Shown piece after piece: positions 12,001 through 15,000 of a DNA stretch of 64,000 bases. The position numbers were made by a program. Numbering within the stretch: the first letter of the stretch is position 1; every line of letters begins with the position of its first letter. Origin of the DNA: an uncultured Bacilli bacterium (GTDB lineage Bacteria > Bacillota_I > Bacilli_A > RF39 > UBA660); NCBI GenBank assembly GCA_944331915.1, contig CALVIR010000002.1, positions 7,149 to 71,148 of the forward strand, in the 5' to 3' direction.

Positions 12001-15000
12001 TGGTTCATAAATCTTAAACTCTCGATATTTCCCCATTTTATAAGTTCCATTTTTTAGTTTATTGTATAAATTAACTATATTACTCTCAAGATCAATATCA
12101 AATTTTAACACCTCTAAAGAATATCTTTTTGTCTTACTAGCCCTCTCATGAGCTTCAATTAATGACTCAATAGTTAATTTATCATAAAAAGCATTTCTTA
12201 TCGTATGAGGCATGATCTAATCCAACCTCCATTAAGATTAGAAATATTTGTAATTTTCTTACTCCATGCTGTATAATTCTTAGAATTTATATATTTCTTT
12301 TTATGTGAAACTCTTATTAACACTTTAACAATTTTTAAATTTGCATCTAATTCATTCAAATAACTAAGTCTTTTCTTCTTATCAAACTCTTTTTGGGCAT
12401 AAATAATATCTTTCAAGCCAGCATAAGTAACATTTTTTATATCTTGCGCTAAAGAAAAACGCTCTGACTTTGGATATTTAAGCAAAATAGATAAAGTATA
12501 GTAAACGAGCTCTACATATTGTTTATAAATCATTAAACCTTCTAAATCATCCATAGCTCCTCCAAATTTTATCTATTCTCCTAGTATTCATTTCTTACCA
12601 ACCAAAAGAATAGTACTTCATTATTTTATTTACTAATACTGCTCGTAAAATGGAAAAAACCTCTAAGATATTTATTTTTTATTACTAAAGTAATAACTTA
12701 AATAATTTTTATATCATAGTCCTCATCACGAGGCGGAACGAACCATTGTTGTTACTACCACCTGTGTTGTTATTGTTGAAATAAAATACACCAGCAATAC
12801 TACCACCAGAATTATAGTTACCGCCGCGCAAAAACCAAAAAGTAATTAAGTTTCTCCCATCTATAACTTAGCATAAATTTACAAAAGTTACAACAAAAAA
12901 ACTACTCTTCTAGCATTCATTTCCTACTAACCAAAAGAATAGTACCTCATTAGTTTTATTTACTAATACTGCTTGTAAAATGGAAAAAACCTCTAAGATA
13001 TTTGTTTTTTATTACCAAAGTAATAACTCAAATAATTATTATATCATAGTCCTTATCACAAGATGGAACGAACCATTGTTGTTACCACCATTGTTGACAT
13101 CAAAATCGAACATGCCACCATGAGTACCAGCTATATGCGAACCGCCGCGCAAAAACTAAAAGTTTAAAGTTTTTCCCTCTAAAAAAGTAGCACAAAAATA
13201 ACAAAAGTTACAAGCAATTTAGTATTAATAAATTAAATGTTATCTAAACTCTTTTTATTTATACAAAAAACCGCATATAATGGCACAGATTTAATATTAT
13301 TCTTAAAACCAAAGTTTTTAGATGACAATCTAATTCCATATTTAGGGTTAAACTCCTTCATATAATTATTTAAACTACGCGATTTAATATGTGTACTAGT
13401 TTTTACCTCCACAGGAATTATCAAACCATTTTCAGACTGTAATATAAAATCTAATTCACTATCATATTCATTTTTCCAATAATTAAGATTTAAATTATTA
13501 TATATCAAAGAATCTGCAACATAATTTTCTGTAAGCATTCCTATCATCGTCTCATTAACCGCTTCTCTATTTTTAATTAAATATATTGGAAACTGACTTA
13601 GATTTGTAAGTAAACCCACATCATTCATATATAATTTAAAAGAATCTAGTTCCTCATACATTTTTAATGGTAAACCTATCTTAACTTTAACACATTTATT
13701 AACTATACCAGCACTTTCAAGCCTATTAATTGAATCACCAAATATAGTACTTGTACCACCTTTTTGAACTAGCTTATATTGAAATTTTTTATTATCTTTA
13801 GCAAGTTGAACTGGTATTGAGTCAAATGCTGCAATTATTTTAGGAGCATAAGTTGGTTCAGCATATTTTGTAATATCATTTTTATATGATTCAAGAATAT
13901 TTTTTTGATAATCAATCGCCTTTATAGTTGAATTAGAATTTATAAATTCTTTTACAACCTCAGGCATACCACCAACAGACAAATAATCATAATATAATTC
14001 CAAAGCTTTTTTATGAATTAAATCAGGCATAGCTTCATTTGTATTATAACATTCTTTAATCTTATTAATTAGTAAAGTATTATTAGTATTAATAAGAAAC
14101 TCTTCAAATGACAATGGATAAATCGTAAGAAAATCAACCTTTCCAACAGGAAAAGAAGATTCATTCTTATTAATATGAACTCCAAGCAAACTACCTGCTC
14201 CAATCACATAATATTCAGGTGCTTCTTCACAAAAGTATTTTAATGATGTTAAAGCTCTTGTATTTTTTTGTATTTCATCAAAGAATATTAATGTTTTTTC
14301 CTTTTCAATAACTCTACCAAATGCAATTTCCAAGTTTTTAATAATATATTGTGGAGTTATATTTTCATCAATCATCTTCCCGATAAGATCATTAGTTTCA
14401 AAATTCACATATATTACATCATCAAAATATTCCTTACCAAATTCTTTTACAAGATAAGTTTTTCCCACCTGTCTAGCACCATAAACTAATAGTGGCTTTC
14501 TATTTTTACTATTTTTCCATGCAATTAAATCCTTCATCACTTTTCTTTCCATACCTATCACCTATACACATTGCAAACTATAACTCCAAAAAAATCAATA
14601 AAAAACATACTTTTTCAGAGTTATAGACGTAAAAGTATTCTTCTAGTATTCATCCCTTACTAACCAGAAGAATAGTACCTCACTAGTTTATTTACCAGTA
14701 TAACTTGTAAAATGGAAAAAACCTCTAAGATATTTATTTTTTATTACTATCGTAATAACTTAAATAATTACTATATAATAGTACTCATCACGAGGCGGAA
14801 CGAACCATTAGTGTTACTACCACCAGTAACATTGTTGTTACTAAAATAGAACACACCTGCATTAGCGGAACCAGAATTAATGTTACCGCCGCGCACAAAC
14901 TAAAAGTTTCCAGTCTTTCCCTCTCAAAATTATCACATAATTTTAAAAAGTACAACAAAAAACTATCCTTCTAGTATTCGGTTTCTACTAACCAGAAGAA

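Follow-up and report, generated by a model that had tools for sequence, protein, structure and literature searches.

Why should every template repeat of a retroelement be followed by its own copy of the same noncoding sequence? The question is raised by a diversity-generating retroelement (DGR) in a 64,000-nucleotide (nt) stretch of DNA from an uncultured Bacilli bacterium (GenBank assembly GCA_944331915.1, contig CALVIR010000002.1, positions 7,149 to 71,148; hereafter the window), where a conserved, AT-rich module of ~150 nt lies 3' of each template repeat (TR). An earlier note on this DNA had put the module forward as a candidate equivalent of the spacer (Sp) RNA of the Bordetella phage DGR. 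Our analysis supports that candidacy because the modules occur in a DGR context, 3' of the TR on the strand encoding avd and the reverse transcriptase (RT), because their helices covary across 43 cassettes and because their elements follow the order seen in the phage. We consider it very likely that the modules form the 3' noncoding part of the DGR RNA and are functionally equivalent to the phage Sp. The position, conservation and strand of the module, its covarying helices and the order of its elements were established directly. Coordinates below are those of the window and, unless noted otherwise, refer to the minus strand.

On that strand the order is cassette G, the target gene with its variable repeat (VR), cassettes E, D and C, an ATPase gene, cassettes B and A, avd, and the RT gene. 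The RT (11149–12213) matched the RVT_1 profile (E = 9.7e-18) and has the motif PIGNYTSQ, which is kept among its homologs with G189, N190, T192, S193 and Q194 invariant; [I/L/V]GxxxSQ in motif 4 is a mark of DGR-clade RTs. The avd gene (12198–12554) overlaps the RT start and lies directly 3' of module A, with no terminator between module A and the avd-RT pair, and its product matched bAvd (PF22296, E = 1.6e-21, 77 bits against a cut-off of 40). The VR (15893–15998) takes up the final ~40 codons of the target gene (15875–17749), whose 624-aa product carries an N-terminal hydrophobic anchor. Between the VR and TR-G (18029–18135) there are 15 mismatches and no gaps, and 15/15 mismatches fall on TR adenines. 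Because an RVT_1 RT and a bAvd are present and the VR/TR-G mismatches are confined to TR adenines, the locus is a bona fide DGR. The other standard TRs are TR-A (12723–12829; 107 nt), TR-B (13053–13150; its 3' homology degenerate), TR-C (14785–14894) and TR-D (15114–15214), and a 23-nt TR 3' motif occurs six times in the window, with zero occurrences expected by chance.

Each of the modules A–D and G begins 1–2 nt past a TR-type core ending in CGTGATGAG. The five copies that the earlier note had placed on the minus strand aligned at full length and scored 131 bits (A, 12573–12721), 130 bits (B, 12902–13051), 130 bits (C, 14636–14783), 139 bits (D, 14963–15112) and 143 bits (G, 17878–18027, adjoining the TR that matches the present VR) against a model built from these copies. 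The sixth, E, had been called divergent; it indeed aligned only in part (57.7 bits vs 130–143), but it proved to be a second type of cassette conserved across species rather than a merely divergent copy. Pairwise identity averages 0.89 among the modules, 0.67 among the TR cores next to them and 0.74 among the 5' leaders of the same units; the module is thus the most constant part of what was duplicated. Within the window the copies lie in a tandem-like arrangement at 85–92% identity, as would fit passenger DNA in a young duplicated or gene-converted unit. Against this, the TR cores of the same units are just 57–83% identical, and the module is found in many species, with RTs down to ~55% identity, where its changes are compensatory and G·U pairs outnumber A·C by 154:3, making the passenger explanation scarcely credible. 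Two further identities were tried and rejected: the module has no terminal inverted repeats and is always linked to and oriented with a TR, unlike a repeat resembling a miniature inverted-repeat transposable element, and it contains no conserved open reading frame, as a protein-coding module would.

The elements of the module are most easily followed in cassette A. Helix P1 is formed by the TR-3' strand CUAUGAUAUA (12710–12719) and the primer strand AAUAUCUUAG (12663–12672), and the tetraloop hairpin P2 (12679–12696) lies between the two. Next comes a strand that we call the Stop strand, AGGUUUUUUCC (12652–12662), which pairs with positions 12848–12858, and then the short hairpin P3 (UUUAC..GUAAA, 12629–12649), UAAAA and the conserved single strand UAAUGAAGUA (UGAAGUA). 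The terminal hairpin P4 (12573–12613) closes the module.

Two of these hairpins had been described before, and both descriptions hold. The terminal stem is perfect in G (CUAUUCUUCUAGU...ACUAGAAGAAUAG, 17878–17918), and all its substitutions in A–D lead to G-U and none to A-C; UUAUUAC-N4-GUAAUAA is present in 5/5 copies with the loops UUUA, UUUG and GAUA and a single U-G pair in D. The tetraloop hairpin has a 7-bp stem that shows AU-to-GC and UA-to-CG compensations in relatives. In the RNAalifold structure of the five window copies, 196 base-pair cells are Watson–Crick, 23 are G·U and 1 is A·C, and the helices of 43 cassettes contain 154 G·U cells vs 3 A·C cells; from this excess of G·U we conclude that the transcript is a minus-strand RNA. 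The short hairpin was seen by inspection in every lineage, although its arms differ (UUUAC/GUAAA, UUCAC/GUGAA, UUUGC/GCAAA, AUUCA/UGAAU and CUAU/AUAG), and it is followed in every lineage by UAAA(A/C)A. In the lineage of the window it has an 11-nt loop insertion, shared with the related locus L005, and a competing pairing. The rival is the helix UAUUAGU/ACUAAUG (e.g., 17925–17947 in G and the 12629–12660 region in A), which copy C keeps through a U-A to C-G double change and one G-U, a single compensatory event; it could represent a second RNA conformation. The UAG-A at the end of the primer strand is kept in the array lineage and is not universal among distant relatives.

The RT has thousands of homologs, and we fetched 80 loci from metagenome-assembled genomes (MAGs) of uncultured gut Bacilli, Clostridia and "Tenericutes". 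In L001–L006 (RTs 70–79% identical), a homologous module follows every TR, with as many as five standard cassettes and a single E-type cassette at each locus. More distant DGRs, which have one or two cassettes (RTs ~55% identical), carry a recognizably homologous RNA between the TR and the downstream genes. RNAalifold on 26 copies gave 23 pairs, 8 of them with compensatory changes. From 43 distinct cassettes we then extracted three helices, using sequence anchors where possible: helix 1, the TR 3' end CUAUGAUAUA with the module strand AUAUCAUAG, both strands being anchored by sequence and not by folding; helix 2, a GGG-initial strand 20–45 nt upstream of the TR with the module strand ending in UUCC; and helix 3, the arms of the terminal stem flanking the conserved UAGUAR...YGAAU core. 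False module matches (L008, L062, L054:336, L075 and L003:5274) were excluded by hand, and cells were set to N where the RNAduplex placement of the 5' strand was wrong or impossible (L002:8467, L009:3194, L047 and L006:8501).

Across the three helices, 90.3% of the cells are paired, compared with 74.1 ± 0.7% in column shuffles (0/500 as high) and 37–50% in controls with slid partners. Changes on both sides were seen in 27/33 pairs, and the covariation score was 0.463 vs 0.173. Helix 1 has 10 pairs, 7 of which change on both sides, and 86.7% of its cells are paired. Both-side changes affect 9/12 pairs of helix 2 and 11/11 pairs of helix 3, where 91.8% of cells are paired among rows prefiltered at ≥8 of 11 pairs. 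The closing pair of the UAGUAR...YGAAU core also covaries, being G-C, A-U or G-U.

Beyond the two hairpins, which the earlier note had right, the analysis revealed a long-range duplex that it had missed, formed with a strand upstream of the TR. This 5' strand is GGGAGAAACUU in cassette A (12848–12858), with equivalents at 13167–13177 (B), 14911–14921 (C), 15233–15243 (D) and 18154–18164 (G), and GGGAUUAGGUC in cassette E (15613–15623). A duplex of 10–12 bp was found in every cassette tested, and when the 270 nt upstream were searched, the site that paired best with the Sp strand was in 27/27 cassettes the homologous GGG site, 177–245 nt away. The sequences forming it are wholly different between lineages (GGGAGAAAC:GUUUUUUCC, GGGAUUAGGUC:GAUCUAAUUCC, GGGUAUAGUU:GACUAUAUCC and GGUCAUAAGUU:AAUUUAUGACC). 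In a cross-comparison of 19 distinct module strands with the 270-nt upstream regions of the 19 loci, every strand being folded against every region, the cognate duplexes averaged -11.26 kcal/mol and the noncognate ones -6.74 kcal/mol, and 0/20000 permutations were as good. The minimum free energy fold of the entire 288-nt cassette G also recovers this long-range duplex, with 12 bp (z = -2.1).

The ends of the modules invite a simpler explanation, that they are transcriptional punctuation only, with the terminal hairpin a terminator, the AT-rich body carrying the next promoter, and no role in reverse transcription. The T-runs that had been reported after the terminal stem in B and D are indeed present, a GC-rich hairpin and a T-run close the E-type module, and a promoter-like motif, TTGTAn-N~17-TGnTAnnT, lies between cassettes, 7–10 nt before each GGG strand. 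These motifs fall outside the module, however, and the hairpins of A, of G and of the last cassette of each related array, which runs straight into avd, have no T-run. Module A runs into the avd ribosome-binding site as had been claimed, although at a spacing other than the 19 nt given: GGAGGAG starts ~6 nt and the ATG 18 nt past its last base. Module G continues into the region upstream of the target gene, also as described. A terminator scan called none of the module stems, and punctuation leaves the invariant UAGUAR...YGAAU core, the other covarying helices and the long-range pairing unexplained. We therefore regard it as improbable as the sole function; under the spacer reading the last stem of B and D could still act like a terminator, but only in a secondary role.

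Is the module then a structured RNA linked to the RT by some other job? A search of Rfam at gathering thresholds gave nothing at the DGR locus. An E-value scan aligned RF02921 (RT-14) to copy D over the full length of the model (1–144) at 35 bits vs a gathering score of 48.1, with four helices and the UAGUAG/CGAAUA strings in register. Among the relatives, L027 passes the RT-14 threshold with 53.6 bits (L036 and L050 score 47.3 and 41.4), and its RT-14 match (8939–9069) and its match to the model of the window lineage (8902–9073) are the same locus. The shared features are a CUAyuAY...RUAGUAG outer stem, an inner hairpin, the stretch GGAUUUAUUCC, a small hairpin followed by UAAA, and a long UAGUA...GAAUA hairpin, and RT-14 likewise adjoins RT genes. 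The difference lies in GGAUUUAUUCC, which is unpaired in the Rfam entry and its paper, whereas here its partner is the strand upstream of the TR, which the Rfam motif does not include. Judged by these alignments, the module is a divergent member of RT-14. The earlier note's spacer reading thus stands, and what it lacked was the existing Rfam entry for the same RNA.

RT-14 has no assigned function in Rfam or in the paper describing it, where RT-10, the BPP-1 spacer, was the only such motif linked to a DGR (Weinberg et al. 2017, PMC5737381). As many of the RT motifs were thought to be possible retron RNAs (Weinberg et al. 2017) and copy A lies directly upstream of avd like a leader, the module might be a retron-like msr/msd or a regulatory leader of avd-RT. 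Yet the RT is of DGR type and paired with Avd, the TR and VR differ by A-only mismatches, and 5/6 window copies are not upstream of any gene. The module also tracks the TR and not the RT, with units of L009 and L012 located downstream of the RT, and the RNA is tied to the TR by two helices, one involving the TR 3' end and the other the strand upstream of it. Another job is accordingly very improbable.

Several points nevertheless weigh against the spacer reading. All window copies score below the RT-14 threshold, and only D was reported at E ≤ 1; RT-10, the phage spacer family, had no match in the window at either the gathering threshold or E ≤ 1, and the link to the phage is therefore one of architecture and not of homology. 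The template:primer helix retains a U·U mismatch in all window copies. The duplex of the standard cassettes pairs a purine run with a U-run and is promiscuous, the cognate partner ranking 2–7 of 19 there. Helices 2 and 3 were extracted with some bias toward pairing, through the RNAduplex-located 5' strand and the terminal-stem rows with ≥8/11 pairs, and the cognate permutation test and slid controls offset this only partly. Finally, a generic promoter scan found 33 sites vs 34.8 in shuffles. The promoter-like motif before each GGG strand, its conservation judged by eye, may point to one promoter per cassette.

Under the spacer reading, each cassette would produce one RNA, its transcript and 5' end being predicted, that starts with the 5' GGGARAAAC strand and continues through a short leader, a TR of ~100–118 nt and the TR 3' end GACUAUGAUAU. 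The tetraloop hairpin would then serve as a putative Avd-binding stem-loop, and the primer strand AUAUCUUAG would pair back onto the TR 3' end to give a template:primer duplex. After a linker of 1–3 nt, the strand (A)GGUUUUUUCC would pair with the 5' GGG strand, closing the TR into a loop; this GGG:UUCC duplex would be the counterpart of the phage "cPRT Stop" that ends cDNA synthesis. The short hairpin and adenosines, the conserved single strand UGAAGUA, and the 13-bp hairpin with the invariant apical UAGUAR...YGAAU core, a putative RT-binding stem-loop, would complete the molecule. RT-Avd would bind the scaffold and both hairpins, cDNA would be primed in cis at or beside the conserved UAG-A, and the TR would be copied with adenine errors until synthesis halted at the 5' duplex. 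We infer the protein-binding sites, the priming nucleotide and the termination point from the phage system. The mechanism also offers an answer to our opening question: the module would be repeated with each TR because priming and stopping in cis require each template to have its own module and its own 5' strand.

If the units are self-contained in this way, do they all serve the one VR? All TRs share the exact VR ends, GCGCGGCGG at the 5' end and TCGTTCCGCCTCGTGATGA at the 3' end. In the array lineage, 58/60 standard TRs are open, and their lengths of 98–119 nt differ by multiples of 3; two TRs of L003 are frameshifted. We compared the VR with the TRs in the window and in ±10 kb of the related loci and found that the adjacent VR matches cassette G in the window; in L001 its match is the second standard cassette, in L002 the first, and in both L083 and L084 the last. 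Pooled over these five loci, 73/140 TR adenines are changed, with 0–1 changes elsewhere. As the VR is matched by different cassettes in different genomes, these comparisons argue that several cassettes are live templates for a single VR. The units A–D might instead serve remote VRs, known as targets of some DGRs (Wu et al. 2018), or be decaying relics, a view that concerns the array and leaves the RNA role of the module aside. The confinement of our comparison to the 64-kb window and the ±10 kb of related loci, the degenerate 3' homology of cassette B and the frameshifted TRs of L003 would suit it. The exact VR ends, the open frames and the lengths in multiples of 3 speak against it, as do the VR matches to different standard cassettes and, in L004, L006 and L081, to the E cassette, and we find it rather unlikely. 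In TR-B the 3' end (13053–13080) reads UUCCAUCUUGUGAUAAGG vs UUCCGCCUCGUGAUGAGG in the other standard TRs, and its core is the least VR-like while its module is intact; cassette B may be decaying or poorly homing.

The E cassette differs from the others in a way that bears on what the array could do. Its module (15307–15450) has the same order of elements with a Stop strand of its own, AGAUCUAAUUCC (15377–15388), and a different 3' domain in which the UUAGUAG...CGAAA core is retained; a GC-rich, terminator-like hairpin with a T-run follows. Its Stop duplex, which reads GGGAUUAGGUC:GAUCUAAUUCC in the window and GGGAUUAAGUC:GAUUUAAUUCC in L001, shows covariation and belongs to the type found in single-TR relatives. 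The E-type TR (15453–15543) has 7 A, 38 T and an in-frame TGA; across loci, E-type TRs are A-poor (7–14 A) and T-rich and, read in the VR frame, contain a stop codon or a frameshift in 9/9 cases. The cassette stands directly after the target gene in at least 7/8 related loci (L001, L002, L004, L006, L081, L083 and L084), while the L003 locus starts at the E cassette, so that its position relative to the target gene is out of view.

In two loci the VR and the E TR have the same sequence: L004, which is a circular MAG from long reads (7590–7684 vs 8061–8154), and L006 (6845–6941 vs 8004–8099). In L081 they differ at two positions; L084, a strain nearly identical to L081, has a standard mutagenized VR. 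Only 1/38 E-TR adenines are changed vs 73/140 for the standard cassettes (Fisher P = 3e-9), and misincorporation in vivo averages ~31% (PMC12875486). By these comparisons, E behaves as a faithful "null" template whose transfer truncates the target protein, and it may be a DGR-driven OFF switch for a surface protein. The nearly unmutated transfer of E could reflect context-dependent fidelity, gene conversion promoted by the longer flank homology between E and the VR, or, in L006, an assembly artifact. Taken as a whole, the reading of this DGR as a cassette-switching array, in which self-contained template genes compete for one RT-Avd, the single VR can be rewritten from scaffolds differing in length and in fixed residues, and the E null cassette turns it nearly unmutated into a stop or frameshift as a retroelement-driven OFF switch, is tentative, and we put it at somewhat below an even chance.

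The surroundings of the cassettes vary among the relatives. In single-cassette relatives (L015, 9286–9654; L026, 7508–7849; L027; and L029), the spacer and avd are separated by a small gene with a MutS domain I (PF01624, E ~1e-8), which resembles the Msl accessory gene of Bacteroides DGRs; the multicassette lineage, including the window, is without this gene, and the spacer of its last cassette abuts avd. L009 (~3100–3900) and L012 (~2700–3150) have two TR-spacer cassettes downstream of the RT, and the position of the cassette unit is therefore independent of that of avd-RT. An AAA_14/DUF4143 ATPase gene (13233–14561) lies within the array of the window between cassettes C and B, and the array of L003 also contains a gap of ~3.6 kb. 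A metagenome scan with the VR 3' flank gave four contigs only, and contigs with close RT homologs break within arrays before the VR is reached.

DGR target proteins carry the VR at the C-terminus, in a fold of the C-type-lectin/FGE-like kind; for this fold the target protein has only a subthreshold FGE-sulfatase match (E = 0.0025, 17.9 bits vs 23.3), and a sequence search of the PDB gave no match. The VR ends in CGCCUCGUGAUGAGCGCGAC, its GC-rich 3' homology (IMH), and is followed by a hairpin, UAGUCC-GUAA-GGACUA (15869–15884; 6 bp, GUAA loop), that overlaps the stop codon; the standard TRs continue as GAGGACUAUGAUAU, without this hairpin. A GC-rich hairpin, GCCGCGGCGC...GCGCCGCGGC, with a T-run occurs at 15765–15794, ~75 nt beyond it from stem to stem. 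The former resembles a DGR target-recognition hairpin and the latter a terminator, and both are kept in L001–L006. Divergent from cassette G are genes for an Amidoligase_2-domain protein (609 aa) and a GGACT/AIG2-like gamma-glutamyl cyclotransferase (18274–20583, plus strand). Past the RT, on its downstream side, are one gene resembling Peptidase_C39 and another resembling thymidylate synthase, and next to them in relatives the rpsL-rpsG-fusA operon, which indicates that the DGR is chromosomal and not phage-borne. A T-box leader (RF00230, 98.5 bits) at 62657–62857 has no relation to the DGR.

If the spacer reading is right, RT-14, an orphan Rfam motif, would gain a function as the DGR spacer of a large clade of gut Firmicutes DGRs. 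The model of cis-primed, duplex-terminated reverse transcription derived from cryo-electron microscopy (cryo-EM) would be extended to a distant lineage, and through natural covariation beyond structure prediction. If priming and stopping act strictly in cis, the whole scaffold should recur with each TR, and its repetition here is consistent with that model. If the array reading is also true, DGRs could pick among templates and switch their target off, and both the sequence space and the regulatory logic credited to them would be wider. The template-plus-spacer units are compact and modular and might be used for engineered DGR mutagenesis.

The closest known system is the DGR of the Bordetella phage, the ribonucleoprotein of which has been solved by cryo-EM (Handa et al., bioRxiv 10.1101/2023.10.23.563531). 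In it, a strand upstream of the TR pairs with Sp 59–70 to form the "cPRT Stop", and the TR 3' end pairs with Sp 47–56, ending at the priming adenosine A56; an Avd-binding tetraloop stem-loop (Sp 3–33) lies inside the TR-primer duplex (bioRxiv 10.1101/2023.10.23.563531). Further 3' follow a short stem-loop with A-minor adenosines, a single-stranded "Thumb Ring" and a long bRT-binding stem with interior loops (bioRxiv 10.1101/2023.10.23.563531). The module resembles the phage Sp in lying directly 3' of the TR on the same strand, in its proposed action in cis, in its length of ~140–150 nt, and in the order of its elements, with similar sizes, a linker of 1–3 nt and a 10–12 nt strand upstream of the TR. 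By position, the tetraloop hairpin corresponds to the Avd-binding stem-loop and the terminal stem to the RT-binding stem-loop, and the long 3' stem has a noncanonical interior as the phage stem does. The two differ in that the 5' partner strand is noncoding and beside a promoter-like motif here but consists of the last avd codons in the phage, in gene order (TR-Sp-avd-RT vs avd-TR-Sp-brt), in the short hairpin (5–7 bp vs 2 bp with a UNCG loop) and in copy number (six per locus vs one). Avd stem-loops and Stop duplexes were predicted in 207/278 Avd-type DGRs, Bacillota included (bioRxiv 10.1101/2023.10.23.563531), and this kind of element is therefore already known; in the phage, compensatory substitutions in the Stop duplex failed to restore activity (bioRxiv 10.1101/2023.10.23.563531). 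What is new is the covariation-backed long-range pairing, the function proposed for RT-14, and the multicassette architecture with a null template.

The msr of retrons is likewise a structured noncoding RNA associated with an RT and self-primes in cis from a 2'-OH. Retron RTs, however, work without Avd, a TR/VR pair or adenine mutagenesis, their msd lies within the same set of hairpins, and their product is free multicopy single-stranded DNA. We found no retron features at the locus, and the retron was rejected as an identity with Avd and a TR/VR pair present.

DGRs with at least two TRs are on record, 53 of them in one survey (PMC11661182) and a Stenotrophomonas DGR with two TRs in another report (PMC6642488). 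Such DGRs resemble the present one in having several TRs per RT and some VRs matched by at least two TRs. These surveys count such loci or set them aside and, in the portions available, describe no separate spacer or 5' strand for each TR, no strain-specific use of cassettes and no null template. Silent-cassette systems such as Neisseria pilS/pilE and Borrelia vls rewrite one expressed locus from silent cassettes by DNA recombination, and off variants arise in them. The likeness to our array is one of analogy only: one expressed locus and an array are found in both, but here each cassette would be an RNA gene for a mutagenic RT.

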